Shown here piece by piece: positions 2,617 to 45,918 of a DNA stretch of 48,575 bases. The position numbers and the translations under genes are program-made. Source of the DNA: a virus (taxonomy: Duplodnaviria > Heunggongvirae > Uroviricota > Caudoviricetes); the IMG/VR virus record IMGVR_UViG_2582581022_000007, positions 1 through 48,575 of that record; one strand, given 5' to 3'. How positions within the stretch are numbered: the first letter of the stretch is position 1; each line of letters opens with the position of its first letter. The notes beneath the pieces are model-generated. The model had not been told where the DNA came from and made no database searches. It saw only the letters and a list, made by a program, of their open reading frames with translations.

Positions 2617-2637
2617 ATATCGACAATAAATTGCAAT

Positions 2638-2664
2638 GGCCGCCGACTATGGCGGCTTTGTTTT
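2638..2664 (+). terminator. rho-independent terminator-like hairpin upstream of terS
   Basis: GGCCGCC-gactat-GGCGGC hairpin followed by TTTGTTTT. Confidence 0.55.
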
Positions 2665-2710
2665 GCGTGTTACTATTACCAAAATGGTAATTATTACTTT
2701 GGTGGTAACA

Positions 2711-3340
2711 ATGCCCGCAGAACCTAAAGCACCAAAACGCAAATCAACGCAGTATAAGCCACTGACAGCGATGCAGGAGGCTTACGCGCAGGAATACACC
2801 AAATGCCCTGAGAATCAGACTCAGGCAGCGATTAACGCAGGATTCTCACCTAATACGGCAGCGGTAAAAGCCAGCGTCATGATGCGTGATGAGCGTATCC
2901 AGAAACGGATCGCCGAACTGATGGAAGAGCGCAACAAGCGTCTGCGTGTCAGTGCTGATTACGTGCTGCTCCGCCTGGTGGAAATCGACCAGATGGATGT
3001 GCTGGACATCCTGAATGAAGATGGCTCAATGAAGCCGATCAGCAGCTGGCCAAAGGTATGGCGTACTTCTCTCAGTGCTCTTGATATTGCAACGATAAAA
3101 ACCACGCAGGCATCACTGCAAAAAGATAATGGTGAAGCGGATCTGTCAGTTGAGGATGTAGAGCATATTCTCAAAAAAATAAAATGGCCGGACAAGGTGA
3201 AGAACCTTGAGCTTATCGGTAAGCACGTCGACGTCAATGCGTTCAAAGAGCGCCTGGAGGTTTCCGGTACCGTCACGATTGCCGACCGCATGGCGAAGGC
3301 CCGTCGTCGCGTGAAAGAACAGGCTGGTGGTGAAGAATGA
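2711..3340 (+). CDS. terminase small subunit
   Basis: Immediately upstream of and overlapping terL; N-terminal region (AMQEAYAQEY...QTQAAINAGFSPNTAAVKASVMMRDERIQKRI) resembles terminase small subunit HTH region; start chosen at ATG 2711 because the ORF-track start at 2636 would span the terminator hairpin. Confidence 0.7.
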   Translation: MPAEPKAPKRKSTQYKPLTAMQEAYAQEYTKCPENQTQAAINAGFSPNTAAVKASVMMRDERIQKRIAELMEERNKRLRVSADYVLLRLVEIDQMDVLDILNEDGSMKPISSWPKVWRTSLSALDIATIKTTQASLQKDNGEADLSVEDVEHILKKIKWPDKVKNLELIGKHVDVNAFKERLEVSGTVTIADRMAKARRRVKEQAGGEE

Positions 3341-4818
3341 CAGCTGCAGCCATGTCGCCGGAAGATCAGCTCGTCGAGGATATCGCATCGTTCACGTATG
3401 ACCCGCTGGGCTATTCGCTGTATGCGTTTCCGTGGGGCGAAGAGGGAACAGAGCTGGCGCATGCCACCGGTCCGCGAAAATGGCAGGCTGATGCATTCCG
3501 CGAGATACGGGATCACCTTCAGAATCCTGCTACCCGTCACCAGCCACTGATGCTGGCCCGCGCATCCGGTCACGGTATCGGAAAATCCGCTTTCATTTCG
3601 ATGCTGATCAACTGGGGCATGTCCACCTGCGAGGACTGCAAGGTGGTGGTGACCGCCAACACAGACAACCAGCTGCGCACCAAAACATGGCCTGAAATCA
3701 TCAAATGGTCGAACCTGGCTATCACGAAAGAATGGTTCACCTGCACCGCCACGGCGATGTACAGCAACGATCCCGGTCACGACAAACGCTGGCGCGCTGA
3801 CGCAATCCCATGGTCTGAGCACAACACAGAGGCGTTCGCCGGTCTGCACAACGAGCGTAAGCGCATCATCGTCGTATTCGACGAGGCGTCCAACATCGCC
3901 GATCTGGTGTGGGAGGTGGCCGAGGGTGCGCTGACGGACGAAGACACCGAAATCATCTGGGTGGCGTTCGGTAACCCGACGCGTAACACCGGGCGTTTCC
4001 GTGAATGCTTCCGAAAATACAAACACCGCTGGAAGTGCGCGCAGATAGACAGCCGTACTGTCGAAGGAACAAACAAGCAGCAGTTGCAGAAATGGGTGGA
4101 CGACTACGGCGAGGATAGCGACTTTGTGAAGGTCCGTGTGCGCGGGATCTTCCCTGATGCGTCTGAAAACCAGTTTATTCCATCCGGCCTGACGCAACCA
4201 GCTGTTGGCAGGGTTATCACTCCGGCACAGGTCCAGCACGCTGCTGTAGTTCTTGGCGTCGACCCGTCTCACCAGGGTAAAGACCCCGCAGTTATCTACC
4301 TGAGGCAGGGGCTGCACTGCAAAAAACTCGGGGAGTGGCAGCGTACCACTGACGATGTGCTGTTTGCGAAAGTGATCGCCGACTTTGAGGATCAGTACCA
4401 GGCTGATGCTGTGTTTATCGATTACGGCTATGGCACAGGTCTTAAATCTGTTGGCGATAACTGGGGGCGTAACTGGACGCTGATAATGTTCGGCAGCGGT
4501 ACGGCAGATCCTGAAATGGGCAATAAGCGCGGCGAGATGTACAAATCAGCCCGTGATGCGCTGAAGCTTGGTGCGCAACTTGATAGCCAGGATTTAGCCG
4601 ACGAGCTGAGCGCTCCTGAATACAAGGTCAGGCTCAAGGACAGCCGGAAGATTTTGCAGGACAAGGAAGAGGTGAAAGAATTGCTTGGCCGGTCACCTAA
4701 CAACGCCGACGCCTATGTGCTGACTTATGCTGCTCCGGTTACTAAAAAACAGTTCAATTATGGGCAGCAGCAAAGCCAGCAGGGTAAGGCTCTCACAGAG
4801 TACGATCCCTATGCATGA
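3337..4818 (+). CDS. terminase large subunit
   Basis: 493 aa; ATPase region (ARASGHGIGKSAF.. / IIVVFDEAS) followed by nuclease-like C-terminal half; position between terS and portal. Confidence 0.85.
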   Translation: MTAAAMSPEDQLVEDIASFTYDPLGYSLYAFPWGEEGTELAHATGPRKWQADAFREIRDHLQNPATRHQPLMLARASGHGIGKSAFISMLINWGMSTCEDCKVVVTANTDNQLRTKTWPEIIKWSNLAITKEWFTCTATAMYSNDPGHDKRWRADAIPWSEHNTEAFAGLHNERKRIIVVFDEASNIADLVWEVAEGALTDEDTEIIWVAFGNPTRNTGRFRECFRKYKHRWKCAQIDSRTVEGTNKQQLQKWVDDYGEDSDFVKVRVRGIFPDASENQFIPSGLTQPAVGRVITPAQVQHAAVVLGVDPSHQGKDPAVIYLRQGLHCKKLGEWQRTTDDVLFAKVIADFEDQYQADAVFIDYGYGTGLKSVGDNWGRNWTLIMFGSGTADPEMGNKRGEMYKSARDALKLGAQLDSQDLADELSAPEYKVRLKDSRKILQDKEEVKELLGRSPNNADAYVLTYAAPVTKKQFNYGQQQSQQGKALTEYDPYA

Positions 4819-4841
4819 AAAAGCCCGCGCATCGGCGGGCT
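4816..4841 (-). terminator. terminator hairpin between convergent terL and moron gene
   Basis: AGCCCGC-gcatc-GGCGGGCT stem-loop; on the minus strand it is followed by TTTTTCA. Confidence 0.55.
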
Positions 4842-4844
4842 GAT

Positions 4845-4858
4845 TGTGACATGTCACA
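4845..4858. promoter_or_regulatory. TGTGACATGTCACA palindrome, copy 2 (perfect 14-mer)
   Basis: Perfect 14-bp palindrome directly next to the terminator hairpin. Confidence 0.4.
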
Positions 4859-4861
4859 TCA

Positions 4862-5278
4862 TTATTTTTCGCTCATTATCTGCTTCAGAAGATAACCTTC
4901 CAGCATCCAGATTTTATTTACCGCATTTTCGCGGGAAATCTTTCGCCCGATCTCTGGGTCGAAGTTCTCAGGGCTGGCGCATGCACTCTCGCCGGTGACA
5001 GTGAATCCATTTCGCAGCACTAGAACGCAAAACGTAAGTACTGCAGCCTGCTCAGGAATGTTCAACTCCTCAACCTTTTCATCATCTGACTTTGTATCAG
5101 TCAAATATTGATGGCGACCTGCTATACCATCAGCAGCCGTGAAGTAATGCTCACTTACTATAACGTCGGCAATCCGTTGTGGCGTAATGCGCGGCGCGTT
5201 TAAGCCTTTAGCCTGAATTTCCTGCTCGATTGCCATGCAGGATGGTGCTGGAGATGCGGTTGATACCATGATTTTCAC
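4862..5278 (-). CDS. hypothetical protein (moron between terL and portal)
   Basis: 138-aa ORF on opposite strand to the structural operon, AAGGTGA RBS 5 nt before ATG, own terminator. Confidence 0.5.
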   Translation of the reverse strand: MKIMVSTASPAPSCMAIEQEIQAKGLNAPRITPQRIADVIVSEHYFTAADGIAGRHQYLTDTKSDDEKVEELNIPEQAAVLTFCVLVLRNGFTVTGESACASPENFDPEIGRKISRENAVNKIWMLEGYLLKQIMSEK

Positions 5279-5476
5279 CTTAAAAAAATGCCCACCGAAG
5301 TGGGAGAACTGGAAGCAAGGGTGCCTTCCATGGCTTTACGGGTTTACAGCGCAACGTCATCGCAATGGCGTTCTGCTGTAAAAGTGACGGTGGTCAGCAT
5401 CAAGGGAAACTGCCACCGCCAATAGCTACACAGCATCGTTCTTATGGGCGCTTCATCACGGTCCTAAGGCGTGATC

Positions 5477-5553
5477 TGGTGCGGCATGCAGGATTCGAAC
5501 CTGCGACCAACCGCTTAGAAGGCGGTTGCTCTATCCAACTGAGCTAATGCCAC
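5477..5553 (-). tRNA. tRNA-Arg (anticodon UCU)
   Basis: Reverse complement folds as cloverleaf: acceptor GTGGCAT/ATGCCGC, D-arm GCTC-AGTTGGAT-AGAGC, anticodon stem ACCGC/GCGGT with loop CTTCTAA, T-arm GCAGG-TTCGAAT-CCTGC, 3' ACCA. Confidence 0.85.
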
Positions 5554-6112
5554 AACGCTGAGAGCACTCCCATCTTTGCTAATGGGCTTCAAGAGCGGCA
5601 GGCCTACCACTTGGAATGCTCTCATCGTTGCATCCTCGTCTCTTCCGAGGTGTCACACCGTATCGCCACGATGGTGAGTCGTCATGTCCGTGCTTACCTG
5701 ACACTGGCTTGCACATTCCGGCTACCCGGTTGGGGAAGTAGCATCAAGGGAACCCATCCGGACCGCTGCGGCACATGTGCCATATGCCGTACTGCTACAC
5801 ATCTGAAAGCGCACTCCACCGTTTGGATTTAACGACCAGGCTCAAAGGTCATTCACTGAAGCGCGCTTTTAGTTGTGTGCGGAGATGATGCTCCGCTTAT
5901 CCACCGCCTTTACTTTTAAGCCCAATTTATTGCTGCGGTACTCCGGGCTACTGCACAAGCGGTTACATAACCACCTCCGCAATTCGTCAATTCAACACGC
6001 GAACTAATTACCTAAAAGGTAATATCTGATGTTATAAGTGTCAATAGCCTACGCTAAATAAATCATATGTGGTTAAATTGGTAATAATTTAATTGCGTAC
6101 GGAGCTATTGCT

Positions 6113-6319
6113 ATGTGTATCGGCAGCAAGCCATCAGTGCCAGCAGCACCAGAAGTACAGGCCGCGCCACAGGAGCAGGATGCAGCAGTTGTCAGTTCTC
6201 GTGACGATGAAGAGCGCCGCCGCCGTGCAGCTGCTGGTCGCAGTTCTACTCTGCTGACTGGTGCGCAGGGCGACACCTCAACCGCAAACACCAGCGGTAA
6301 AACGCTGCTCGGTCAGTAA
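6113..6319 (+). CDS. small hypothetical protein upstream of portal (68 aa)
   Basis: ATG with GGAG RBS 8 nt upstream; ends 15 nt before portal start; low-complexity Ala/Arg-rich product, so could be spurious. Confidence 0.35.
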   Translation: MCIGSKPSVPAAPEVQAAPQEQDAAVVSSRDDEERRRRAAAGRSSTLLTGAQGDTSTANTSGKTLLGQ

Positions 6320-6333
6320 CGGAGTAGGCAGAG

Positions 6334-8004
6334 ATGGCGGAAACCGAAAAAGAGCGTCTGCTGAAGCAGCTCGCACAGCTGAAGAATGAGCGCACATCGT
6401 TCGAGTCGCACTGGCGTGACCTGAGCGACTTCATCAATCCGCGCGGCTCTCGCTTTCTGACGTCTGATGTAAACCGTGATGATCGTCGAAACACCAAGAT
6501 TGTTGATCCTACTGGCTCAATGGCTCAGCGCATTTTGTCCAGCGGCATGATGTCAGGCATCACCAGCCCGGCACGTCCATGGTTCAAACTGGCAACGCCA
6601 GACCCTGACATGATGGATTATGGTCCGGTTAAAGTCTGGCTGGAAGTCGTGCAGCGCCGCATGAACGAAGTGTTCAACAAGTCAAACCTGTATCAGTCAT
6701 TGCCTGTCATGTACGCCAGCCTTGGCACTTTCGGCACCGCCGCAATGGCTGTGCTCGAAGATGACCAGGACGTGATCCGCACAATGCCTTTCCCGATTGG
6801 CAGCTACTACCTGGCTAACAGCCCGCGCGGCAGCGTCGACACATCCTTCCGCCAGTTCTCCATGACTGTTCGTCAGCTTGTGCAGGAATTCGGTCTGGAT
6901 AACGTCAGCTCATCGGTGCAGGGGATGTGGCAAAACGGCACGTATGAAACGTGGATCGAGGTTAACCACTGCATTACTCCAAACGTTAACCGTGATACCG
7001 GGAAGATGGACAGCAAGAACAAGCCGTTCCGCTCTGTGTACTTCGAGAGTGGCGGCGATTCCGACAAGCTGCTGCGTGAGTCCGGCTTCGATGAATTCCC
7101 GATCCTGGCGCCGCGCTGGGAAGTTAACGGCGAAGACGTTTACGCATCTTCCTGCCCTGGCATGCTGGCACTCGGTCAGGTGAAAGCCCTTCAGGTTGAG
7201 CAGAAGCGTAAAGCTCAGCTGATCGATAAGGCTACTAACCCGCCGATGGTCGCACCTACCTCGCTAAAAACACAGCGTGTTTCCCTGCTGCCTGGTGATG
7301 TGACGTACCTCGACGTGTTGAACGGTCAGGACGGTTTCAAACCTGCATACCTGGTAAACCCGAATACTGCAGATCTGCTGGCTGATATTCAGGATACCCG
7401 CCAGACCATCAACAGCGCCTACTTCGTCGACCTCTTCATGATGCTGCAAAACATCAACACCCGCTCTATGCCGGTGGAAGCAGTGATCGAGATGAAGGAA
7501 GAGAAACTTCTGATGCTTGGCCCGGTGCTGGAGCGCCTGAACGACGAAGCACTTAATCCGCTTATTGACCGCGTTTTCTCCATCATGGCGCGCAAGAACA
7601 TGCTTCCTCCACCGCCGGACGTTATGCAGGGTATGCCGCTGCGTATCGAATACATCTCCGTTATGGCGCAGGCTCAGAAATCTATCGGACTCACCAGCCT
7701 TTCGCAGACCGTTGGCTTCATTGGCCAACTCGCACAGCTCAAACCTGAAGCGCTCGACAAGCTCGACGTTGATCAGGCTATCGACGCGTTCTCCGAAATG
7801 TCCGGCGTATCGCCAACCGTCATCATTCCGCAGGAGCAGGTTCAGGGCATTCGTGAAGAGCGCGCCAAACAGGCACAAGCCGCACAGGCAATGGCAATGG
7901 GGCAGGCCGTAGCGCAGGGAGCCAAGACTCTCAGCGAGACGCAAACCACTGACCCGAGCGCATTAACCGCTATCGCTAATGCAGCAGGAGCACCGCAGCA
8001 ATGA
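6334..8004 (+). CDS. portal (head-to-tail connector) protein, T7-like
   Basis: 556 aa directly after terminase; Q/A-rich C-terminal tail (AKQAQAAQAMAMGQAVAQGAK) like podovirus connector proteins. Confidence 0.75.
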   Translation: MAETEKERLLKQLAQLKNERTSFESHWRDLSDFINPRGSRFLTSDVNRDDRRNTKIVDPTGSMAQRILSSGMMSGITSPARPWFKLATPDPDMMDYGPVKVWLEVVQRRMNEVFNKSNLYQSLPVMYASLGTFGTAAMAVLEDDQDVIRTMPFPIGSYYLANSPRGSVDTSFRQFSMTVRQLVQEFGLDNVSSSVQGMWQNGTYETWIEVNHCITPNVNRDTGKMDSKNKPFRSVYFESGGDSDKLLRESGFDEFPILAPRWEVNGEDVYASSCPGMLALGQVKALQVEQKRKAQLIDKATNPPMVAPTSLKTQRVSLLPGDVTYLDVLNGQDGFKPAYLVNPNTADLLADIQDTRQTINSAYFVDLFMMLQNINTRSMPVEAVIEMKEEKLLMLGPVLERLNDEALNPLIDRVFSIMARKNMLPPPPDVMQGMPLRIEYISVMAQAQKSIGLTSLSQTVGFIGQLAQLKPEALDKLDVDQAIDAFSEMSGVSPTVIIPQEQVQGIREERAKQAQAAQAMAMGQAVAQGAKTLSETQTTDPSALTAIANAAGAPQQ

Positions 8005-23475: not shown

Positions 23476-24165
23476 TCAGAACTTACCAGCCATGCTGTTG
23501 ATGTACTGCGTATGAGTCTGGATATCGCGCAGGCATTTACTGGCGCCGACAATATAGCTCATCATGGCCGCGAACTCTGCTACAGCACCTTCAACATCAT
23601 GCCCGTCGGAATCCAGTTGGCGCAGCAGGTTCATCATCAAAGAGTGCTCTCTCAAACCAAGAACACCTTCAGGTGAATGGATGTGTTCACGGTAGTTTGG
23701 CTTGAGTGGGGCGCTGTATTCCTGTTTCTCTTCCGTCTTCATCGCTTCCAGAATGGCGGGCATGAAGCTGGCTACAACCTTTTGCGCTTTGTCTGCCGGT
23801 GATAATTCTTCACGAACGTATCGACCAGTGCGGCGGATTTGCGGAAGAACGTCGCCAGTTACCCATTTGCGGAAACGATAGGGGATAGTACCAGGAGTTA
23901 CCGCATCGCGGCAGCGCAGGATCAGAGTGTAGAGGCCGGATTCAGAGATGATGAGGGTATTAGGGTTCCCTCGTTTTCCGTCGGTTAAAGCGACGGTATT
24001 CTTTTCGTCGTCATCCAATTTAAGCAGAGCATCACGGTTGTTTGATATACCAAGAGCATTACATACATCTAACGCAATAAACCATGGCTCGCCGTCGATG
24101 ATGATTGCACGAATATCGGCTTGCGATTCGAAAGAAAAAACTGAAGTATTTTTTTGAGTTGTCAT
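23476..24165 (-). CDS. phage antirepressor (Bro-N/AntA-like N-terminal domain)
   Basis: N-terminal FSFESQADIRAIIIDGEPWFIALDVCNALGI resembles Bro-N/AntA; start set at ATG 24165 with GGTGA RBS. Confidence 0.7.
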   Translation of the reverse strand: MTTQKNTSVFSFESQADIRAIIIDGEPWFIALDVCNALGISNNRDALLKLDDDEKNTVALTDGKRGNPNTLIISESGLYTLILRCRDAVTPGTIPYRFRKWVTGDVLPQIRRTGRYVREELSPADKAQKVVASFMPAILEAMKTEEKQEYSAPLKPNYREHIHSPEGVLGLREHSLMMNLLRQLDSDGHDVEGAVAEFAAMMSYIVGASKCLRDIQTHTQYINSMAGKF

Positions 24166-24323
24166 AGTGATCACCTTTTAGTCTGGTTAATCACCACCGG
24201 AGGTTCCAATCTCGGAGGTGGTGAACTGTGCAGGGTTGGAACTACCGGCTAAAAGGACCCGGCGCACCTTTCGGTGCCCCCACACAGCCCACCATAATGC
24301 GAATGTGGCCGTGCTTAACGCAT

Positions 24324-24343: not shown

Positions 24344-24480
24344 GAATGCGCCTTTTAGTATCCGGGGTTCCAATCCCGGCACTGGATTTTGCCAGTGCCT
24401 GATCACTATGGCACAAGTATTTTGCGTTGTAAATTTACCGTAAAGGTAATAATAAACGCATTATGTAGGTTATTTCAACC

Positions 24481-24741
24481 TTATGTGGTTTGTCTGCGTA
24501 GCTGTTCAACGCAGTAGTCGAGATGCGTTTGCACATCCTTCATGGACAACTGCGAGCTGGTGACATAGTTCACCAGTGCAGTAAGTTCGGCCAGCGGCCC
24601 GTCGACGTTGAATCCGTCTTTATCAAGTTCCCGCAATAAAGTCATAAGGTGCGAGTTCTCCACCAGGGATATAACGCCTCCCGGCGTGTGTACTCTTTCA
24701 TAAAATCCATCTTCCAGTGGGTGGTGATACCGCTGTTGCAT
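24481..24741 (-). CDS. stand-alone paralog of the antirepressor C-terminal domain (86 aa)
   Basis: SLVENSHLMTLLRELDKDGFNVDGPLAELTALVNYVTSSQLSMKDVQTHLDY parallels LGLREHSLMMNLLRQLDSDGHDVEGAVAEFAAMMSYIVGASKCLRDIQTHTQY of 23476..24165; ATG 24741 with GGAGAA RBS. Confidence 0.5.
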   Translation of the reverse strand: MQQRYHHPLEDGFYERVHTPGGVISLVENSHLMTLLRELDKDGFNVDGPLAELTALVNYVTSSQLSMKDVQTHLDYCVEQLRRQTT

Positions 24742-24936
24742 TAACCATTCTCCATACAAACACTGTATATATATACATATATCAGATGAACCACTGTTTC
24801 ACCAGTATGATTTTTAATTACCTGTGAGGTAATAACTTTGTTGATTACATCTCGTGCGATTCATATATGGTTCGTTGGGTAATAGAATAACCAGTAGTGC
24901 GGTGCGCCGGGTGCTGCGACTTTCTGGAGTTTAAAC

Positions 24937-27648
24937 ATGACGGTCTCAACCGAAGTTGACCACAATGACTACACGGGTAACGGGGTCACGACATCATTCC
25001 CATATACCTTCCGAATTTTTCATAATCATGATCTGGTGGTGCAGGTTGTTGACCTGAGCGAAAACATCACTGAATTAACACTGGACACAGATTACACGGT
25101 GACAGGTGCTGGCGGATATACTGGCGGGAATGTTGTTTTATCGTCGCCTCTTGCCAATGGTTATCAGATTTCGATATCCAGAGAGTTACCGGTTACCCAG
25201 GAGACCGATCTCAGAAATCAGGGTAAGTTTTTCGCAGAAGTGCATGAGGATGCTTTTGATAAGTTAACCATGCTGATACAGCAGGCAATTAGTTGGCTGC
25301 GCCTTTCTTTACGTAAGCCGTCTTTTATTGCAAATTATTATGATGCCCTGGGTAACTACATACGAAATCTTCGTGACCCGTCACGACCACAGGATGCAGC
25401 TACAAAAAATTACGTTGACGGGGTTGCTGAAGGTAACATTTCTTATGCAGATTCTCTATTTAAAAGAACCTTAAGAGTTCCTGAGGATTATGTTGACCAG
25501 ATACCATCAAATGCTGATAGATCAAATAAAATACTTGCTTTTGATTCTGGAGGTAAACCGATTGCTGTTTTACCTGAATCTGGTTCTGCTTCAGATGTTT
25601 TAATTGAGCTGGCAAATAACGGTGATAAAAAAATTGGTAGCTCATATGGTGGCACAGTTTATAGCGACTACCAACAATCAATTTTTGTCAAAAAAGGAGA
25701 TTTTTATTCCGGTTTAAGCATATCGGGAAAAGATGATGCCTACCTTTTTTCTGATGGGCTATGGTATGTATGGACTGGCGCATTACCGCACACGATCTTG
25801 TCGGGTGAAACTCCTGATGTAGAAACAACTAAATGGGCTTGTGTAGGCCTGCTTAATGGGCATGAAATTTGTTCTGCTCTTAACTATAGCGATTCATGGG
25901 GCATCCATGATGATTCACCATTACTTCGCAAAGCCATCATTAGTTTAATAAGAACTGGATATGCAAGATTTTGCATTAACGCTGGCGTTACTATTAACCT
26001 TTTTACTGATTGCGAAATTCCGTTCTATCTGGATGGGAGGGCTGTGTCTTTCCGTTTTCATGGAGAAACAGCAATTGGTTCTTTAGGAAGAGTGTCAGAA
26101 CTAGTAGTAGCTCTAGGTATTAGAGGTCTTGTATTCGAGGCTATTCAAGTAGAGATTGACCATTTCACTATGCGTCAGTGGGTTGGTAATGCTGGGCAGT
26201 CTATTGTCAGTTATACATCTGATACAGTTACGCTATCTTTTGACCCATGGCCTGACGGACGCACCCCAGTGATATGGCCTTGGGGAACTACTGCTGGTGA
26301 TGGCACTGTTTACACAAGCTTTTTAGAATTTAAAACTGACAGTGGTGGTTATTACGCATCTGGCGTAACTCGCAACTTAGATGGAACCGTAACACTAACC
26401 AATGTCCATCCTATTGGGCCAACTAATACAATCGCTTCCGCAACGATTGTTAACTTTTTCCAGAGTCATGCTAATAACTATCCAGAAGGAAGTTTCGCAG
26501 ATACGGCAGCAGTAATCACCCTGGGGGTATCAGAAAACCCATTTATTCATAACTTATGGGTGCTTGCTGTCTATCGAGGCTTTGCTCACGGTCTTGGCTC
26601 TGGAGCAGGTCCGGGAGTATTGATGGGAAATATCGGCGTATGGTCTGATATTGTCGTAGACAACGCTTTATACTTTATAGCTAATACTGATGTGAATCCA
26701 TCATCTGGGCAAGGCATCAACAATGGGATGTTCAATAACATTCAGTTATCAAACGTCCGTCGTGGAATAAGAGCACGTAGAGCCTACAATCTTGCATTCA
26801 CAAACCTTCAGCATATTGCTAGCGGTAATGTTTCATTTGATGCTGTTACTATACTGGCAAATGAAATAGAAGGTGTTACTTTAAATGGATCTCAGTTTGG
26901 TTGGACATCTATCGACTGGGTTATAGATACATGGGTTCCTAAACTACTCAAGTGTACCCGATTACGTCGCTCCTCTATTACTGGATGCGTGTTCGGTCGA
27001 CATGATGTAACCATCACAAGAGGTGCCGTAATTGACGTTAAGGACGGCACAATACTAGGTTTAACACTAACTGGTAATTCTATGGTTACAATCGACGAAA
27101 ACTCAGATTCAAGTAACTATGGATGGATTGAGTGTAATGAGCTTAAATCATCAGTTATTTCTGATAACTCCCCTAGTTCAGGTAGTGAGCTTGGTGGAAG
27201 CATTAATCTCTCGCTGAGAACTGCTTCTAATGACTTAACAAAATTTGATAACACATATTTTGGTCAACCAGTCAGAACAAACGCAGAAGCTGGTGTGTTT
27301 GATAATGAACTAGCATCCGGTGGAAATGTTTTTGACAGCACAACTGAATACAGAGACGCAGGTAAAATTTTAATCTTTGTTGATGTAAACAATGCTGCTG
27401 TATGGCCTGATAATTCAAGGAATATCATACCATTCGGCGGAGGATTAACAGGAGGTAAAACACTTGGATTGCCTACCCCAGCAGTACTCCTGTCATTGAA
27501 AAGAAGAAGTGTTCTGGTTGATTTGTCATCTGTGGTTTTTGGTAGCCAGACAATTGGAGTGTATAACGGGGCAACTTTGGTATCAACAATATCAACTCCT
27601 GGTGTTTATGAGTTTCTCCTCGTAGGGGCAAAATACATAAAATTATAA
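24937..27648 (+). CDS. tailspike / tail fiber with conserved podovirus N-terminal anchor and AT-rich variable receptor-binding region
   Basis: N-terminus MTVSTEVDHNDYTGNGVTTSFPYTF is the phage tail-fibre head-binding motif as I recall it; 903 aa; composition drops to AT-rich after ~residue 170; terminator follows. Confidence 0.8.
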   Translation: MTVSTEVDHNDYTGNGVTTSFPYTFRIFHNHDLVVQVVDLSENITELTLDTDYTVTGAGGYTGGNVVLSSPLANGYQISISRELPVTQETDLRNQGKFFAEVHEDAFDKLTMLIQQAISWLRLSLRKPSFIANYYDALGNYIRNLRDPSRPQDAATKNYVDGVAEGNISYADSLFKRTLRVPEDYVDQIPSNADRSNKILAFDSGGKPIAVLPESGSASDVLIELANNGDKKIGSSYGGTVYSDYQQSIFVKKGDFYSGLSISGKDDAYLFSDGLWYVWTGALPHTILSGETPDVETTKWACVGLLNGHEICSALNYSDSWGIHDDSPLLRKAIISLIRTGYARFCINAGVTINLFTDCEIPFYLDGRAVSFRFHGETAIGSLGRVSELVVALGIRGLVFEAIQVEIDHFTMRQWVGNAGQSIVSYTSDTVTLSFDPWPDGRTPVIWPWGTTAGDGTVYTSFLEFKTDSGGYYASGVTRNLDGTVTLTNVHPIGPTNTIASATIVNFFQSHANNYPEGSFADTAAVITLGVSENPFIHNLWVLAVYRGFAHGLGSGAGPGVLMGNIGVWSDIVVDNALYFIANTDVNPSSGQGINNGMFNNIQLSNVRRGIRARRAYNLAFTNLQHIASGNVSFDAVTILANEIEGVTLNGSQFGWTSIDWVIDTWVPKLLKCTRLRRSSITGCVFGRHDVTITRGAVIDVKDGTILGLTLTGNSMVTIDENSDSSNYGWIECNELKSSVISDNSPSSGSELGGSINLSLRTASNDLTKFDNTYFGQPVRTNAEAGVFDNELASGGNVFDSTTEYRDAGKILIFVDVNNAAVWPDNSRNIIPFGGGLTGGKTLGLPTPAVLLSLKRRSVLVDLSSVVFGSQTIGVYNGATLVSTISTPGVYEFLLVGAKYIKL

Positions 27649-29880: not shown

Positions 29881-31071
29881 ATGTTGACTGACACCAGGCT
29901 GCGTCACCTTAAGCCGAAGGAGAAACTCTATAAAGTTAATGACCGTGATGGTCTGTATGTTGCGGTCACTCCGGCTGGAACTATTTCATTTCGTTATAAC
30001 TATTCAATAAACGGAAGACAGGAGACCGTTACTTTTGGCCGCTATGGTGTTGGAGGGATCACGCTTGCAGAAGCGCGTGAACGGCTCAATGAAGCTAAAA
30101 AAATGGTTGCCAGTGGAAGATCGCCAGCGAGGGAAAAAGCTAGAGATAAAGCTCGTATCAAAGATGCGGAGACTTTTGGTGCATGGGCTGAGAAATGGTT
30201 ACGCGGTTATCAAATGGCTGAATCGACGCGTGATATGCGGCGTTCGGTATATCAAAGGGAGTTGAAGTCAAAATTTGCGCAGCAGAAATTGACCGAGATT
30301 ACACATGAAGACTTACGCGCATTAACCGATAACATTGTCGAGAGAGGGGCACCGGCGACAGCTGTGCACGCCAGAGAGATTGTATTGCAAGTCTATCGCT
30401 GGGCTATTGAGCGCGGTCAGAAGGTTGAGAATCCCGCTGATCTGGTACGGCCTGCAAGCATAGCGAAATTTGAGCCTCGTGACAGGGCATTGACGCCAGT
30501 TGAAATTGGTCTGATGTATCGGTACATGGAACGGGTAGGAACGACGCCATCAATCAGAGCAGCGGTTAAACTTTTGCTGTTAACGATGGTACGTAAAAGT
30601 GAGCTTACTAACGCAACCTGGAACGAGATCAATTTTAGTGAGGCATTATGGACGATACCAAAGGAGAGGATGAAACGACGTAATCCACATTTGGTTTTTC
30701 TTTCCAGACAGGCAATGGATATTATGATTGCTCTCAAAACCTTTGCCGGTAGCTCTGATTTTATCCTTCCTTCGCGGTACGATTCCGATGCGCCAATGAG
30801 TAGCGCTACTTTAAACCGGGTTTTGACACTGACGTATCGTCTGGCTCAGAAAGAAGGGGACTTGTTACCTAAGTTTGGTCCCCATGACTTACGGCGTACT
30901 GCCAGCACCTTGCTACATGAGGCCGGGTACAATACTGACTGGATTGAGAAGTGCCTTGCCCATGAACAAAAGGGGGTACGAGCTGTTTATAACAAGGCTG
31001 AATATCGTGAGCAGAGGGCCGAGATGCTACAAGATTGGGCGAATATGATTGATGAATGGACTAGTAAGTAG
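29881..31071 (+). CDS. int: tyrosine recombinase/integrase, P4-type
   Basis: N-terminal arm-binding-like region (RLRHLKPKEKLYKVNDRDGLYVAV); C-terminal catalytic signature HDLRRTASTLLHEAGY...CLAHEQKGVRAVYNKAEY. Confidence 0.9.
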   Translation: MLTDTRLRHLKPKEKLYKVNDRDGLYVAVTPAGTISFRYNYSINGRQETVTFGRYGVGGITLAEARERLNEAKKMVASGRSPAREKARDKARIKDAETFGAWAEKWLRGYQMAESTRDMRRSVYQRELKSKFAQQKLTEITHEDLRALTDNIVERGAPATAVHAREIVLQVYRWAIERGQKVENPADLVRPASIAKFEPRDRALTPVEIGLMYRYMERVGTTPSIRAAVKLLLLTMVRKSELTNATWNEINFSEALWTIPKERMKRRNPHLVFLSRQAMDIMIALKTFAGSSDFILPSRYDSDAPMSSATLNRVLTLTYRLAQKEGDLLPKFGPHDLRRTASTLLHEAGYNTDWIEKCLAHEQKGVRAVYNKAEYREQRAEMLQDWANMIDEWTSK

Positions 31072-31194: not shown

Positions 31195-31824
31195 GTGCCT
31201 GAGTTGTCTGTAATTATACAATGGATGAATCAATACCCTAAGACCGGCTGGCTATTGCTGTGTATCTATATTGCACTCGGTGTAGTTCGTCACAGAGTAA
31301 TTAATGCTGAATCTGGAAGTGTATTTCGTGGACTACTCAATCTTAGGAAGCGCCGGCTAGAGCAAATGCTGACACAGCCATATTTGAATAAAAATGCGGT
31401 CCGTCTGGCAAAGCGTGAGCTTCGTCAGCGCAGCCTTTATCGGCTCACAGGCTTGTATAATTATCGGCTGCAGGATTTGGCTGTAATAATGTGTGATCGT
31501 TATGGGTTGCGGGCTGGTTATCTCAAGCCGTGGCGTAACTGGCTCGAAGAACGGGATGGACGGATTGTGTTCAACAGGAAATGGCATTGTTTTCGCTGGC
31601 GTCTTTTTCTGGTAGGTCAGATTGTAAACACAGTTCTACTAATCTTATTCATTATGTATATAGTTTCTCATTCTTCGGCCGAAATGATCGCACCGCTTAT
31701 GTTACTCTTCATGCTTGTATGGTGGTTTCCTTGGCTAATGATCACCTCGGTACCTACCCCTAGGTGGACTCGCGAAATGGAAGTCTATCTTGAGAAATTT
31801 AACGCTGAACAGACCATGGTTTAA
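31195..31824 (+). CDS. hypothetical membrane protein
   Basis: 209 aa, several hydrophobic segments; GTG start with AAGGA RBS; flanked by palindrome copies 1 and 2. Confidence 0.45.
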   Translation: MPELSVIIQWMNQYPKTGWLLLCIYIALGVVRHRVINAESGSVFRGLLNLRKRRLEQMLTQPYLNKNAVRLAKRELRQRSLYRLTGLYNYRLQDLAVIMCDRYGLRAGYLKPWRNWLEERDGRIVFNRKWHCFRWRLFLVGQIVNTVLLILFIMYIVSHSSAEMIAPLMLLFMLVWWFPWLMITSVPTPRWTREMEVYLEKFNAEQTMV

Positions 31825-31961
31825 ACTGTTCTTTGTTACCATGCATTCAGAGTGAATTGTCAGAGTTTTGGAAGATTCCATCCTACGAGTAATACTCACA
31901 AGGTAATTCACATAATCAATAGGTTAAGTCATAAGCTTCTTGACCCTACATGAGAAGACGA

Positions 31962-31978
31962 ATTTTAGCTGCTAAAAG
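31962..31978. promoter_or_regulatory. KorB operator-like palindrome, copy 2 (ATTTTAGCTGCTAAAAG)
   Basis: One central and one terminal mismatch; flanking ~15 bp also resemble copy 1. Confidence 0.4.
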
Positions 31979-32401
31979 TTTGGGCATATTTGGACTTAAA
32001 TGCCACCGACATGATTCTAATAATTAAGCCAGTACCTAATGAGCCAAGAGAAGACAACTGTAAACGCCCCTTGGCTTAGACTTGCTTTCAGGAAAGCGAA
32101 TGCTTTTTATGGTCAGGGACAAGTAAGGGGATGAGCCATTGCATAACCATAAAACCAATTCGTTCTATGTCATTACAGATCGGCTTCAGTGATTTACTGG
32201 TGAGGTAGTATCACTGTGATCCGTTTTGCATAACGCTTACAGCTGCGCTACAAACAATAAACTATAATACTGTATTTTCAAAATCATCAATTTGAAGCAG
32301 GGTAATCGCGAAAAACCCTCGTAAGTGGCTGGTTATAATTCAATAAAGTGGATGATATTAAGACTTAAACTGCCACCATAATAGCTCGTGGATATACTAT
32401 T

Positions 32402-33373
32402 TTAAATATAAAATTCTTTCCTCACAGACGCTAAGGCCTTGGACACAGCCTGCTTTGTCATAGTTGTGTAGTGATTTTTTTCTAAAACCTGTGCGGTTTC
32501 AAACTGGTTAAAACCTTGGTGTTTTAATATGATTATTTTTTTCTTAGTATCAGTGAATTTGGAGTCAACCATTCGTCTGGCAATATTCCTAAGTTTATCT
32601 AGATCTGCTGGGGTTAAAGTTTGACCCTGCATCCACTCATGAAAATAGGTATCAATCAATATATCCCCTGTGTTTGCGTTAGCTTTATGCGGTTTAGCGC
32701 ATTGCCGTCTAAGCCTTATTAATTCTTTATTGAACTGTTCGAGAGACCGCTTTCCTTGTCTGTATTTGGGATTCCATAGACCATTGGTGAGTTTGGGCCT
32801 ATGGTCAGAACAATATCGATGACTAAGGACCTGTTTTTCATGAACGGGGAACTCATTATCGTTAGCAACAAATTCTGATATCTCACTGATCAACTTGGAA
32901 AATTCGGTTAGATTACCGCAGAACTCGCAATAACCGAGCTTACGCTGTGAATTTATAGTTACTCCTTTTGCAGGAGAGGATTTCTTCGGCCGCTTGGATG
33001 CGCACTCACTGACTAATTCAATAAGAGACTCAATCGTAGCGGTAAAGCATTTATCAAGAGAAGTTTGTTGATCTAAAGTCAGAACGAAATTACGCAAAAG
33101 AAGTCTTTGTGCCTGTACTACGACGTTTAAGCCCACTTTTTTAAGTACATCACTAAATCCTAGATTTACTCCAGAAATGTAGTCTTTATGACTTGGTGGC
33201 AGGGAATTTACATAAGCAGCTACTGCTGGATCAATAACTTCCTGTATGAGACGCAGTATTGGATACCTCCGTGAAAATATGGAGTACGGATAACTACGCT
33301 CTACAAATAATTTAATTGCAGCTGCAACTGTGAGGTCACAGCCTTCCCAGATAGTAATTTTCATGTCAACCAT
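32402..33373 (-). CDS. hypothetical regulator-like protein with Cys/His cluster and C-terminal HTH-like segment
   Basis: AT-rich ORF divergent from alpA; CEFCGN...CSDH cluster; start set at first ATG not overlapping alpA; no convincing RBS. Confidence 0.4.
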   Translation of the reverse strand: MVDMKITIWEGCDLTVAAAIKLFVERSYPYSIFSRRYPILRLIQEVIDPAVAAYVNSLPPSHKDYISGVNLGFSDVLKKVGLNVVVQAQRLLLRNFVLTLDQQTSLDKCFTATIESLIELVSECASKRPKKSSPAKGVTINSQRKLGYCEFCGNLTEFSKLISEISEFVANDNEFPVHEKQVLSHRYCSDHRPKLTNGLWNPKYRQGKRSLEQFNKELIRLRRQCAKPHKANANTGDILIDTYFHEWMQGQTLTPADLDKLRNIARRMVDSKFTDTKKKIIILKHQGFNQFETAQVLEKNHYTTMTKQAVSKALASVRKEFYI

Positions 33374-33450
33374 TTTAGCCAATGAATAGGTTTTAGCAAG
33401 TGGTAATGCTTGGCATTGTATAGGCCTGATTGGAAACAGGAGGAAGGCAG

Positions 33451-33681
33451 ATGCAAACAAAGGCACATAGCACGCTCATTAACAGAAAAACACTTCTGGA
33501 AATGATCCCATTGTCAGCCCGCACTATTTATAACCTTGAACAGCGAGGCGAGTTTCCTCGCCGTATAGCACTTACTAGTCGAAATGTTGCATGGCAGTTA
33601 TCCGAAGTGGAACAGTGGATTGCGGATCGTAAATCAGCAATGTTTAAAGCGGCCAGACCCGGTGTTGTTTTAGGTAGGTAA
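33451..33681 (+). CDS. alpA: AlpA-family transcriptional regulator (prophage CP4-57 regulatory protein type)
   Basis: ~76 aa with LLEMIPLSARTIYNLEQRGEFPRRI HTH; AGGAGGAAGG RBS before ATG 33451. Confidence 0.75.
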   Translation: MQTKAHSTLINRKTLLEMIPLSARTIYNLEQRGEFPRRIALTSRNVAWQLSEVEQWIADRKSAMFKAARPGVVLGR

Positions 33682-33686
33682 CAGCA

Positions 33687-34544
33687 ATGTCATTGAACAT
33701 AATGGAAGCATTTGAAGCTAAGCCACAACCAATTGATTACGTCTTGCCTAATTTGGCTATTGGTACTATCGGAGCGATTGTTTCTCCGGGAGGCGCTGGA
33801 AAGTCAATGCTGGCATTACAATTGGCTGTGCAGATTACTTGTGGTGTAGATCTTTTAAACTTTGGTGAATATCCGACTGGGTTGGTGGCATATTTACCTG
33901 TGGAGGACTCTGAAACCATCGTTCACCATCGTTTATATGCGTTGGGAAAATATCTAACAGCACGTCAGCAGCAGATTGTAGCTGATAAGCTACTGGTCGA
34001 ACCTTTGGTAGGGAAGTGTCCAAATATTTTCTTGCCGGATTGGAGCAACTTGATCAATGAAGTTTCAAAAGGTAGACGTTTAATAATTTTGGATACTCTT
34101 CGCCGTTTCCACCAGGAGGATGAGAATAATAGCGCAGCAATGTCCAAAGTCATTGGAAAGCTAGAAGGTATTGCTGCTGATACTGGATGTTCGATTATAT
34201 TTCTACACCATTCAAACAAAGGCGCTGCCACGATGGGGGTTGGTGATATACAGCAGGCAAGCAGGGGTAGTAGCGTCCTGGTTGATAATATACGGTGGCA
34301 ATCTTATCTGGCGGGCATGACCGCCTTGGAAGCGAAGACGTATGGTATTTCTGATGATGTTCGAGGTCAATTTGTTAGATTTGGAATAAATAAAGTAAAT
34401 TATGGAGAACGTGCGCCAGATCGTTGGTTACAGAGACATGAGGGGGGAGTATTAAAAATAACGGCGCTCAGCTCGAAGAATAATAAAAAGCTTACTAAAG
34501 AAAGAACATCTACCTGGAGTGGCGCTGACAATGACAACTGGTAA
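33687..34544 (+). CDS. RecA-fold P-loop ATPase (AAA_25/RepA-like)
   Basis: Walker A IVSPGGAGKSMLALQLA, Walker B-like RLIILDTL, IIFLHHSNK; typical partner of alpA in integrative islands. Confidence 0.6.
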   Translation: MSLNIMEAFEAKPQPIDYVLPNLAIGTIGAIVSPGGAGKSMLALQLAVQITCGVDLLNFGEYPTGLVAYLPVEDSETIVHHRLYALGKYLTARQQQIVADKLLVEPLVGKCPNIFLPDWSNLINEVSKGRRLIILDTLRRFHQEDENNSAAMSKVIGKLEGIAADTGCSIIFLHHSNKGAATMGVGDIQQASRGSSVLVDNIRWQSYLAGMTALEAKTYGISDDVRGQFVRFGINKVNYGERAPDRWLQRHEGGVLKITALSSKNNKKLTKERTSTWSGADNDNW

Positions 34545-35313
34545 TAAAGTGGCACCCACAAGTACAGCTTGGCAAGCCCGAGTAATTCTGTACCAGCCAA
34601 GCCAGCGTCCTAAGGAGGTGAAGGGACAATGGATGGAGACTAGTTTTGGTCGTTGTCGTGTTACCGGACGGCTCGGACAGCGTCATGCCGATATCGTAGA
34701 GACAATATTATATGTTGCCGAGCAACGTCGTGAAATTTCTGATGGTGGAATCGAATTATTAGTAGATCCAGCGAAAGTACGCCGAACGCTATCCGATGCA
34801 CAATACAGTTATGGTCGTATACAGAAATTGCTTTTAGATCTGCGCGTCGCAACAGTTGAAATTATAACGCCAGAGCTGGAGAAAAGCGGCGACTGTATAA
34901 TAGGGGGACTGATCGATCATGTAGTGCCATCACCTATGACGCGTCCAGATCCTTTGACTGGGGGAGAACGCCGTTTATGGCGTGTCCGTCTGGGTGTTGC
35001 ATTAGCGATGTTACTCAAAAAAGATTTGCCATTTTATTATCATCCTGGCCCCATAGCTCGGCTACAACATGGTATTAGCCAGGCAGTCGCTCGTCATGTC
35101 TTAACCCATAGTAATAATCCTTTAGGAGGGTGGTATATGGATACGTTGATATTAGCAGTATGCGGTGAAGGAACGAGTAATATGACTTTACGTAACTATC
35201 GTCGGAGATTGAAAGAAGATTCCGTGCAATTGCTGGAAATTGGAATTGATTTGAACGGTTCTAGGATAAAACGTGTCACAACGGCCCGATATTGTGTCAC
35301 AACGGCCCGATAG
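34519..35313 (+). CDS. hypothetical protein, possibly replication-associated (3' end overlaps iteron array)
   Basis: 264-aa ORF; last ~40 nt lie within 21-bp iterons; start codon uncertain (GTG 34519 or ATG 34531). Confidence 0.35.
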   Translation: MALTMTTGNKVAPTSTAWQARVILYQPSQRPKEVKGQWMETSFGRCRVTGRLGQRHADIVETILYVAEQRREISDGGIELLVDPAKVRRTLSDAQYSYGRIQKLLLDLRVATVEIITPELEKSGDCIIGGLIDHVVPSPMTRPDPLTGGERRLWRVRLGVALAMLLKKDLPFYYHPGPIARLQHGISQAVARHVLTHSNNPLGGWYMDTLILAVCGEGTSNMTLRNYRRRLKEDSVQLLEIGIDLNGSRIKRVTTARYCVTTAR

Positions 35314-35356
35314 CGTGTTATAGCGGCCCGGTAGCGTGCTACAGCGGCCCGATTTT
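35273..35356. repeat. iteron-like array, 4 tandem 21-bp repeats (GTGTCACAACGGCCCGATATT and variants)
   Basis: Units at 35273, 35294, 35315, 35336 share GTG-yyAyAgCGGCCCGrTa core; followed by AT-rich region with GATC sites. Confidence 0.7.
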
Positions 35357-35564
35357 TTACTATTCAGCAGTATTTACAGGATCGTTCAGGATCTACAGTC
35401 TTTGAAATCACCTGCCTGAGCAGGCGCTTTCAAATCTAGAATCGGCCAAAGGCCGATGGTTGTACGCCAGAAGAAGAGATTACTTACTCGTTTGGTATAT
35501 TGACACTTGAGGTAGGTTTTATGACATATGAGGTACGCCCCTAGCTTTAGGCATAGGGAGGAAG

Positions 35565-35581
35565 ATTTTAGCCGCTAAAAT
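35565..35581. promoter_or_regulatory. KorB operator-like perfect palindrome ATTTTAGCCGCTAAAAT, copy 3
   Basis: Identical 17-mer to copy 1; ~400 bp upstream of mobC-like gene. Confidence 0.5.
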
Positions 35582-35970
35582 CTGCAATGCACATGCTTTG
35601 ACAATGTAAGTAAAAAAGTGCATGAGAAAATAAAATATTTCTTACAATATATCGAAACATAAATACAGTTGGTGGACGCCCATTTATAACTACTAAAGGT
35701 CATTTTCAAAAGGGAGAAATATAGTTTCCTTGCAAGAAACACATTTGCTGCAGATCTTTACCCGAGTAATCCTATATTAATACGCTAAGAAAACACATCC
35801 TGTACACTGAAATACACATTGATGTGCACAGATATACTACGGCAACAGGAGGGCAGGACATGTAAAGTAGGCCCACCGCTACGGTGTTCCAACTTTACCA
35901 CTCCCTATTCGCCGCATCGCGGCTCAAGGGCGTCCTGCTCTGCCAGGCTACCGCCTGTATGGAGAGCTAT

Positions 35971-36324
35971 ATGAAAGTTACTCAGACTAGAAAAAATAGT
36001 ACGCCAATAAAAGTTTATTGTTTACCCGAAGAAAAAATTCTCATCCAAGAAAATGCAGAAGCATCTGGATTAAGTGTTGCCTGTTTTGTTCGTAGAGTTG
36101 CAATGGGTTATCAGGTTGATTCTATCGTAGATATAAAACAGGTTAATGAACTTAGCCGAGTAAACGCTGATCTTGGAAGACTTGGCGGATTACTTAAATT
36201 ATGGCTCGCAAATGATCCTCGAACAGTTGATTTTTCACCCACCCTGATAAGAACCTTGCTTGCGAAAATAGAATCAACTCGGCAAGAACTAAGGAACATT
36301 ATGGATAAAATCTTGGATAAATAA
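35971..36324 (+). CDS. MobC-like ribbon-helix-helix mobilisation accessory protein (putative)
   Basis: 117 aa from ATG 35971 (GGAGAG RBS); IKVYCLPEEKILIQENAEASGLSVACFVRRVAMG resembles relaxosome RHH proteins. Confidence 0.45.
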   Translation: MKVTQTRKNSTPIKVYCLPEEKILIQENAEASGLSVACFVRRVAMGYQVDSIVDIKQVNELSRVNADLGRLGGLLKLWLANDPRTVDFSPTLIRTLLAKIESTRQELRNIMDKILDK

Positions 36325-36405
36325 ATGTGTGGTTTCCTATATACCTGCGTCTGTTAAAAGACAGTGTGTTAAATATTACTGAACTGATGAAAAAGAGGTG
36401 AGCAA

Positions 36406-37200: not shown

Positions 37201-37211
37201 GGAAACGCAGA

Positions 37212-37385
37212 ATGAAAGATAATCTTTTGATTGTATTTATTCTGATCAGTTTATTGGCCATATGTTCTTGCGATAAAAATGATAAAGATTGTTTATCGAC
37301 GCCAGATAATAAATTTGATGAAAATAAATACGATAAATGTGCTCTACGGAGTAATAATAAACCAAGCCCTAAACGAGAATGGTAA
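37212..37385 (+). CDS. trbK: small lipoprotein, TrbK-like (entry exclusion) by position
   Basis: MKDNLLIVFILISLLAICSC signal/lipobox-like N-terminus, 57 aa, between trbJ-like and trbL-like genes. Confidence 0.45.
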   Translation: MKDNLLIVFILISLLAICSCDKNDKDCLSTPDNKFDENKYDKCALRSNNKPSPKREW

Positions 37386-38779: not shown

Positions 38780-38860
38780 ATCATGTGCGTCAGTTAACGA
38801 GGTAGCGTGAGCTGACGCTTTCACTGTGCGAACTTTACTCCTGCAATTCAAAGGAAAAAC

Positions 38861-45916: not shown

Positions 45917-45918
45917 AA

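Follow-up and report, generated by a model that had tools for sequence, protein, structure and literature searches.

Organization of the accessory unit

Here, we mainly focus on an accessory segment in the genome of a tailed phage (IMG/VR record IMGVR_UViG_2582581022_000007, analyzed over its whole length of 48,575 nucleotides (nt) and hereafter called the window), and in particular on a 177-nt structured RNA encoded just upstream of a tRNA-Arg(UCU) gene. The prophage in the window is epsilon15-like (Uetakevirus); its closest records are the Salmonella phages SPN1S, SPN9TCW, 65FD, and epsilon15, along with prophages of Escherichia coli E2348/69 and H10407. In all relatives, the segment is bordered by terL on one side and by the gp3-like and portal genes on the other. 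Judging from the order of its elements, positions 4822-6046 are organized as a single minus-strand unit, which comprises, in its 5′ part, a sigma-70 promoter with a palindromic operator, a leader of ~215 nt, the 177-nt RNA, a 61-nt spacer, and tRNA-Arg(UCU), and, in its 3′ part, a non-coding module of ~170 nt (module A), a weak terminator, an open reading frame (ORF) of the Acb4 family, and a strong terminator. The promoter appears to drive the whole series, from the leader through the RNA, tRNA-Arg, and module A to the ORF.

An initial annotation, made from the sequence without database searches, had described the segment as a moron. Its elements were all recovered here, with some corrections, and its interpretation is supported. 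The description fits the term in the sense of Hendrix: the segment is an extra unit between two conserved late genes with its own conserved promoter and terminators, and the content of both the ORF slot and the tRNA slot differs among close relatives. A blastn comparison with 20 relatives further showed that the non-coding DNA is pieced together from conserved modules. Positions 5267-5475 are 73-97% conserved, the core (5615-5792) is 72-99% conserved from Salmonella to Klebsiella, Kluyvera, Buttiauxella, and Scandinavium, the tRNA slot differs from relative to relative, 5793-6005 is found in just some relatives, and 6006-6112 forms an AT-rich promoter region. The ~560 bp in which the initial annotation saw no convincing ORF correspond to 559 bp (5554-6112) without any credible or conserved ORF, and a further 197 bp (5280-5476) are also non-coding.

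A conserved structured RNA upstream of the tRNA

The evidence for the RNA is comparative rather than thermodynamic, because the folding energy of the single sequence is unremarkable on both strands (z = +0.2 to +0.6). In an alignment of 17 copies, the arms of the helices change in concert, and RNAalifold predicted 42 pairs, 12 of them with compensatory double changes. A 35-pair model with seven helices (P1-P7) was scored on a trimmed alignment (A2) of 32 sequences from diverse homologues, in which 95.7% of 1110 pair cells are canonical and 12 pairs, amounting to 65 cells, are doubly changed; none of 500 shuffles was as good, and slid controls reached 26-54%. While the helices covary, a 19-nt segment (GGUAGCCGGAAUGUGCAAG, positions 5726-5708) is invariant. 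Canonical pairing drops to 82.9% when the antisense strand is read, and 149 cells are G.U; the G.U pairs and this strand asymmetry together indicate that the RNA runs in the direction of the tRNA, i.e., on the minus strand.

One covarying pseudoknot, and possibly a second one, accompany these helices. The first joins CACC in the P5 loop with GGUG in J5/6, and its variable position is C-G in 60 cases, A-U in three, and broken in none, the A-U carriers being a Buttiauxella podophage (L014) and a related pair of lambdoid loci (L143 and L144). The second would join the P1 loop with J2/3 (GCACAU:AUGUGC); both of its sides are invariant, with one mismatch in L014, so covariation speaks neither for nor against it. 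For J2/3, the P1 loop and the 3′ tail are alternative partners, and these two pairings are mutually exclusive. A covariance model of the RNA (R1) finds exactly one copy in the window, at 5791-5615 (180 bits, E = 1e-52), and one match per locus in 63 of 63 diverse loci. The small RNA whose presence in the non-coding stretch the initial annotation had guessed is thus substantiated by covariation and by the covariance model. On the sequence evidence, a structured RNA inside this stretch exceeds chance, and so does the tRNA.

It is hardly credible, by comparison, that the stretch is a mere long tRNA leader, an overlooked gene for a small protein, or a DNA-level feature such as a conserved site for packaging or protein binding, and we disfavor these explanations. 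They can draw on the promoter and operator that the stretch does hold, on the unexceptional folding energy, and on the phage records listed, in which the RNA is either unannotated or overlain by 'hypothetical protein' calls (Tyrion, mEp390, mEp460, and BUCT554). They are contradicted by the compensatory changes that keep the RNA pairs, with G.U tolerated on one strand only, and by the retention of the element in 36 epsilon15-like and 49 other loci without a downstream tRNA-Arg. As for a protein, the indels do not come in threes and reading frames are lost: the lengths of the 63 homologues are spread evenly modulo 3 (22/21/20), and from one conserved block to the next the frame offset takes no fixed value, which shows that the region is not coding. 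A 73-aa plus-strand ORF (5611-5832), considered as a protein gene, was ruled out on these grounds.

Rfam 15, searched at E up to 1 over positions 4700-6400, returned only the tRNA, with no match at 5615-5791, and the copies of the RNA in P1 and mEp460 likewise had no match at E up to 1; the scans did recover known RNAs (tRNA, C4, and isrK). A search of the available literature by name and by sequence strings gave no description of the RNA. The family is therefore apparently undescribed and absent from Rfam. A weak match to the Trp-leader model (28.9 bits vs 41) proved to be just the terminator. The features of the unit and of its surroundings are listed in Table 1.

Table 1. Features of the accessory unit and of its genomic surroundings in the window
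Feature	Position	Strand	Basis or remark
terS	2636-3340		
terL	3337-4818		
Strong terminator hairpin closing the unit	4822-4841	minus	U-run on minus strand alone
135-aa ORF, Pfam PF13876 (Acb4 anti-CBASS sponge family)	4862-5269	minus	Pfam, PDB 9e4w match
Short intrinsic-terminator-like hairpin CCCACUUCGGUGGG + U7	5282-5304	minus	12 nt before ORF start
3′ non-coding module A	5305-5476	minus	73-97% conserved in relatives
tRNA-Arg(UCU) with encoded CCA	5477-5553	minus	ARAGORN and Rfam
Spacer / 5′ leader of the tRNA	5554-5614	minus	Alignment; AGUGCUCUCAGCGUU at 5568-5554 conserved
Core structured RNA, 177 nt, P1-P7 and CACC:GGUG pseudoknot	5615-5791	minus	Covariance model R1, covariation
Leader (module C)	5792-6007	minus	Present in only some relatives
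15-bp palindrome TTACC-N5-GGTAA, probable operator	6008-6022	.	Repeated in the window
-10 hexamer TACCTT, 17 nt from -35	6016-6021	minus	Inside the palindrome
-35 hexamer TTGACA of the promoter reading into the RNA	6039-6044	minus	Conserved in epsilon15-like loci
gp3-like ORF	6113-6319		
Portal gene	6334-8004		
Tailspike gene	24937-27648		
Integrase gene	29881-31071		

Distribution of the RNA in phages and Escherichia coli

A search with the invariant motif identified copies in more than 120 further viral contigs of IMG/VR. In P1, P7, D6, SJ46, and RCS47, the RNA lies in an unannotated interval of 286 bp between trnI (tRNA-Ile2, CAT) and ban, and the P1-type copy, which scores 120 bits, begins ~13-16 nt after trnI. 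Lambdoid carriers include mEp390, mEp460, Ayreon, 2H10, 1720a-02, Stx2a_1447/WGPS2, and Stx2c phages, along with related IMG/VR loci, and no N gene was annotated or found in the loci examined. Their shared order is a cI-like repressor gene, an operator-rich PL-like promoter, 45-130 nt, the RNA, and a further structured RNA, followed downstream by an intrinsic terminator and then by genes of the PL operon (RecE-like exonuclease, xis, and int). These phages have one copy per genome, and no second copy was found on the PR side of mEp460. The RNA thus belongs to a portable family, present once per genome in three phage types, namely epsilon15-like podophages, P1-like phage-plasmids, and lambdoids without an annotated N; in the loci examined, these three types have no gene near the RNA in common. 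It is always sense-oriented and lies in the 5′ part of an operon, often beside tRNAs, with a promoter that adjoins a repressor gene or overlaps an operator.

With the 177-nt core as a blastn query, matches were obtained in 2029 of 5426 complete E. coli genomes (~37%; 558 at ≥80% coverage), at 2662 places in total, 280 of which are on plasmids, and no annotation underlies the matches listed. The RNA is absent from the CPS-53 remnant of E. coli K-12, a relative of the lambdoid carriers.

The lambdoid-type loci contain further RNAs of their own. Just after the 177-nt RNA, several of them (L035 7558-7677, L062, L093, and L140) hold a module resembling the small RNA (sRNA) RprA, consisting of AAUUGCUGUGUGUAGUCUU and a terminator; at 49.7 bits (E = 8e-5), it scores below the RprA gathering score of 70, and it may be a phage-borne mimic of RprA. 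Module A of the window was also considered as an RprA candidate, which is not supported, as the window has no match to RF00034 at E up to 1 and the resemblance is limited to short shared strings. In the PR operon of mEp460, the antirepressor gene is preceded by a C4 antisense RNA (83.6 bits) and by isrK (67 bits), both within L144 131-319.

Promoter, operator, and leader

As the initial annotation had supposed, the non-coding stretch holds the promoter and leader of the tRNA, in the form of a conserved TTGACA-17-TACCTT promoter and the long leader that follows it. Across ~80 epsilon15-like loci, TTGAC is invariant in all except two (TTGGC), the spacer of 16-17 nt varies freely, and TACCTT or TACCCT follows. 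The palindrome that overlaps this promoter occurs four times in the window (at 2676-2690, 24435-24449, and 24818-24832 besides 6008-6022), as against 0.08 copies expected, and three of these copies (2676, 6008, and 24435) overlap promoter-like hexamers; for those at 2676 and 24435, which precede terS and the tailspike region, respectively, the hexamers are TTGCGT-17-GGTAAT, read on the plus strand. The GenBank record of epsilon15 labels the site equivalent to 6008-6022 as a repressor/IHF (integration host factor) binding site. One DNA-binding protein probably controls several units of the phage via this palindrome.

Between the palindrome and the P1-loop motif lie 12 to 231 nt, depending on the locus, and the window is one with a long leader. 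The local hairpin quoted in the initial annotation (GCGGAG-catcat-CTCCGC on the minus strand) is present in this leader at 5879-5896, together with a longer, conserved hairpin formed by AGCGCGCUUCA (5867-5857) and UGGAGUGCGCU (5818-5808), which reappears 3′ of the RNA in lambdoid-type loci. The epsilon15 record marks the leader area as an RNase III site.

Possible functions of the RNA

Over a cis-acting antiterminator of the put type, we tentatively prefer a stable RNA that is released by processing and interacts with a host factor. According to this proposal, the RNA itself would be a product, made early, either on infection or when repression lifts. RNase P and RNase E, which mature the adjacent tRNA, would cut it from a polycistronic non-coding precursor. 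Once folded, it would form a compact particle and contact a conserved component of enterobacteria through the invariant nucleotides of its junctions and loops, with RNA polymerase, the translation or tRNA machinery, and tRNA-targeting defense as candidate partners. A shared need for such a host partner would allow the module to move between phages that have only the host in common. In favor of a product, we count that the RNA is accompanied on the presumed transcript by further stable RNAs (the tRNA, tRNA-like inserts, or the RprA-like sRNA module), that one epsilon15-like contig (L046 4783-5390) keeps the promoter, the RNA, module A, and the terminators with no cargo ORF before terL, and that the 19-nt segment stays invariant among covarying helices. 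ROOL, GOLLD, and the stable RNAs of T4, described below, offer precedents. The conservation of the RNA junctions is, as far as the alignments indicate, of aptamer or ribozyme grade.

Several points weigh against this proposal. The contig that retains the RNA without a cargo ORF is a single case and may reflect a recent deletion. Because the RNA lacks its own terminator, a discrete species could arise only through the assumed processing. Its place right after PL in lambdoids without an annotated N, in combination with the intrinsic terminators that precede the first ORF at 30 of 63 loci, suits a role in cis at least as well. Moreover, epsilon15 itself lacks the tRNA and most of the RNA, of which the covariance model recovers no more than the 5′ 46 nt before the sequence passes into module A (L001 2616-2680). 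Given this loss, laboratory growth does not require the RNA, and the P1 ban operon is likewise non-essential by CRISPR interference (CRISPRi).

The loss in epsilon15 can be related to the structure of the unit. A hairpin in module A (5420-5386) repeats in its loop the sequence UUCCCUUGAUGCU of the P2 loop of the RNA, and a 13-nt string, TTCCCTTGATGCT, occurs twice in the window, at 5740-5752 (P2 loop of the RNA) and at 5396-5408 (loop of the module A hairpin). The epsilon15 junction falls at this very string, which suggests that most of the RNA, along with the tRNA, was lost by recombination-like deletion from one direct repeat to the other.

The main rival explanation, which we regard as only slightly less likely, is that the RNA is a cis-acting processive antiterminator or anti-Rho leader that resembles put of HK022 in action though not in origin. 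While being made, the RNA would attach to the transcribing polymerase and take it through an untranslated, terminator-containing early leader, thereby serving the Acb4-family ORF in the window, the PL operon in lambdoids without an annotated N, and ban in P1. The lambdoid arrangement speaks for this explanation: in mEp460, Stx2a_1447, and the IMG/VR lambdoids, the RNA follows the PL-like promoter beside cI by ~45-130 nt where N is neither annotated nor found, and the intrinsic terminator, exonuclease, xis, and int come after it. The put RNAs of HK022 and HK639 occupy the same position, being structured RNAs just downstream of an early repressor-controlled promoter and ahead of terminators in phages that lack N, and put requires no phage protein partner, which is a further likeness; the location that characterizes put is thus found in the lambdoid carriers and does not apply to the podophage of the window. 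In addition, the leaders are long and untranslated, and in those 30 of 63 loci a canonical terminator separates the RNA from the first ORF and mostly abuts the ribosome-binding site (RBS) of that ORF. As the carriers share a host and no nearby gene, the partner of an antiterminator would have to be a host component, e.g., the polymerase.

Other observations argue against the antiterminator. There is no similarity to put by sequence motif or covariance model, the scores on the put regions of HK022 and HK639 being ≤3 bits with filters off (the HK022 putL sequence was extracted using the primers given in PMC9378689), and homology to put was accordingly rejected. Short strings that look like put (CGGCG..CAUGCGUCG and GGGUUC) failed the covariance-model test. 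Unlike put, which is ~70 nt long with two stems, the present RNA has 177 nt with seven helices and pseudoknots; a genome has a single copy and none on the PR side, whereas put comes as putL and putR; and it is also found in P1 and in podophages, outside the PL/PR setting. The P1 copy lies in mid-operon with no terminator ahead of ban. The epsilon15-like unit ends at a strong terminator facing terL, where read-through would produce antisense terminase RNA, and in L046 there is no ORF to express.

A further candidate is a self-cleaving ribozyme, or a dedicated processing element that would free the tRNA or sRNA from a polycistronic precursor. Small ribozymes are common in phage genomes, the RNA is embedded in precursors of stable RNAs, and invariant junctions between covarying helices, along with pseudoknots, would be in keeping with catalysis. 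We nevertheless consider this improbable, given that no Rfam ribozyme model matched at E up to 1, that nothing points to a cleavage site, and that host RNase P and RNase E normally mature tRNAs unaided.

A riboswitch or other ligand-sensing leader controlling the downstream cargo, e.g., one in which a nucleotide signal switches on the sponge gene, appears very unlikely. The aptamer-like conservation, the 5′ leader position, and the two mutually exclusive pairings of J2/3 would suit such a device. The downstream genes are a mixture, however, comprising tRNA, the sRNA-like module, Acb4, Tad2, ban, and the PL operon, and the nearest terminator is ~310 nt away with the tRNA in between, which leaves no adjacent expression platform.

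Relation to known phage RNAs and implications

Among known RNAs, the stable species 1 and species 2 RNAs of T4 (rnaC and rnaD) lie in the T4 tRNA cluster, are co-transcribed with it, and are matured by tRNA-processing enzymes. T4 is virulent, whereas the carriers considered here are temperate, with the promoter beside a repressor gene or overlapping an operator. The 'ornate' phage RNAs ROOL and GOLLD measure ~580 to >800 nt, and their known examples come mostly from Firmicutes or metagenomes. The present RNA differs from both in its size of 177 nt, its enterobacterial carriers, and the lack of an Rfam match to either. In common with them, it is phage- or prophage-borne, pseudoknotted, and located near tRNA genes, ROOL and GOLLD being described as 'often near tRNA islands' (PMC12286853).

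That the RNA represents a new class of portable phage RNAs acting directly on a core host machine is a proposal which we put forward with reserve and consider unlikely at present. In its most exciting version, the RNA would be a protein-independent antiterminator, structurally unrelated to put, that stands in for N in a large group of lambdoids and Stx2 phages and is likewise used by P1 and by epsilon15-like phages. In the other version, it would be an RNA-only inhibitor or decoy of tRNA- or nucleotide-based defense, expressed together with Acb4 and Tad2 sponges. If true, either version would give a function to an element that, by blastn, occurs in ~37% of complete E. coli genomes and in P1. 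This covarying RNA was apparently overlooked despite its presence in P1, in Stx2-converting phages, and in epsilon15/phiV10-type phages of Salmonella and O157. It fills a slot for which lambdoids with no annotated N would require some means of antitermination and, to judge from the layout, shares its transcript with rare-codon tRNAs and with genes of the Acb4 and Tad2 families; it may therefore bear both on how early operons are run in such phages and on the role of tRNA-associated phage RNAs. The RNA merits annotation as a family, which would also clear the spurious 'hypothetical protein' calls. The tRNA and the ORF, by contrast, are ordinary, well-classified cargo, and the novelty of the unit lies in the RNA.

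The tRNA gene, its slot, and AGA codons

The tRNA-Arg of the initial annotation is well formed and lies on the minus strand. ARAGORN calls it with the anticodon TCT as the sole tRNA within the window, and the Rfam tRNA model RF00005 matches over its full length (positions 1-71 of 71) at 71 bits, as against a gathering score of 29, so the tRNA is neither a fragment nor a pseudogene, the outcome that was to be checked by such a scan. It has seven acceptor pairs (one of them G.U), the anticodon loop CUUCUAA, and a 3′ ACCA. Its standing as cargo rather than an att site is likewise upheld, because it is the only tRNA in the window and lies ~24 kb from the integrase gene. Phage-borne tRNA-Arg(UCU) genes such as argN/argO of phages carrying Shiga toxin (Stx) genes are similarly rare-codon cargo, and the tRNA of the window is in itself nothing unusual.

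The slot that it occupies is filled in various ways. The tRNA-Arg follows the RNA in 45 of 83 epsilon15-like loci, and the leader ahead of it also precedes non-tRNA inserts in relatives. These inserts (L003 2201-2313, L009/L019 ~2820-2920, and L144 ~2665-2800) are structured, with an acceptor-like closing stem, GUGGU..ACCAC, and AAC(C) after it; the insert of E2348/69 is called a 113-nt pseudogenic tRNA-Gly by RefSeq. An Rfam scan of the other cargo in the tRNA slot of relatives gave no relevant match.

The phage ORFs contain 39 AGA codons, of which 17 are in the tailspike gene (17 of its 38 arginine codons) and seven in the integrase gene, the head genes being nearly devoid of them (head and portal genes have none in the comparison with the tailspike). 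With regard to the codon-usage check proposed in the initial annotation for the phage late genes, AGA is concentrated in the tailspike and integrase genes and not in late genes generally. Because of this concentration, a role of the tRNA in AGA decoding is plausible but narrow, and it would supply such decoding chiefly for these two genes. The share of AGA among the arginine codons of the tailspike, set against none in the head and portal genes, suggests that the tailspike gene was recently acquired, is compositionally foreign, and is the main client of the tRNA.

The Acb4-family gene and its slot

The ORF at the 3′ end of the unit was read in the initial annotation as 138 aa, with its own RBS and terminator. 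The strand, RBS, and terminator stand, the last being a hairpin with a T-run (4841-4822) that scores as a terminator on the minus strand only; the length is open to revision, since the 138-aa reading (4862-5278) begins at GTG, and ATG 5269, which lies 6 nt after AAGGTG and gives 135 aa, is the likelier start. The product carries PF13876 (E = 3.3e-35, 120.9 bits vs a Pfam cut-off of 27), the family by which the Acb4 cyclic-dinucleotide sponges acting against the cyclic oligonucleotide-based antiphage signaling system (CBASS) are defined (PMC11722364). Its match to the structure of SPO1 Acb4 (PDB 9e4w) is weak (E = 0.003), with the ENF(N/D)xEIGR core aligned. In this weak alignment, F48, F62, and I66 are retained among the 3′3′-cGAMP contact residues of SPO1 Acb4 reported in PMC11722364, while the remaining ones are changed (K36->V, E49->T, Y57->A, and T70->I). 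The ORF is a strong member of PF13876 that keeps the ligand-contact set only in part, and its product would sponge cyclic-dinucleotide immune signals.

In relatives, the ORF slot holds Acb4-like genes (epsilon15 and phiV10), a Tad2-like gene (a Klebsiella phage), or unknown genes, or it is empty. As two of these fillings belong to anti-defense families, the slot may be a site for anti-defense cargo.

Other features of the window and its relatives

In the Enterobacter phage Tyrion (L005 515-579), an int-alpA RNA motif (44 bits vs a gathering score of 35.8) was found among the cargo ORFs between terL and the RNA. Within the window, a small minus-strand ORF (24480-24745) lies between two palindrome copies upstream of the tailspike gene and adjoins the gene of a Bro-N protein (23476-24174); this region may be a second accessory insertion. 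Finally, the portion to the right of the integrase gene (31200-48575) is rich in AGA, AGG, and ATA codons (10.8, 7.0, and 21.4 per 1000, respectively) and looks like another horizontally acquired island, not core chromosome.

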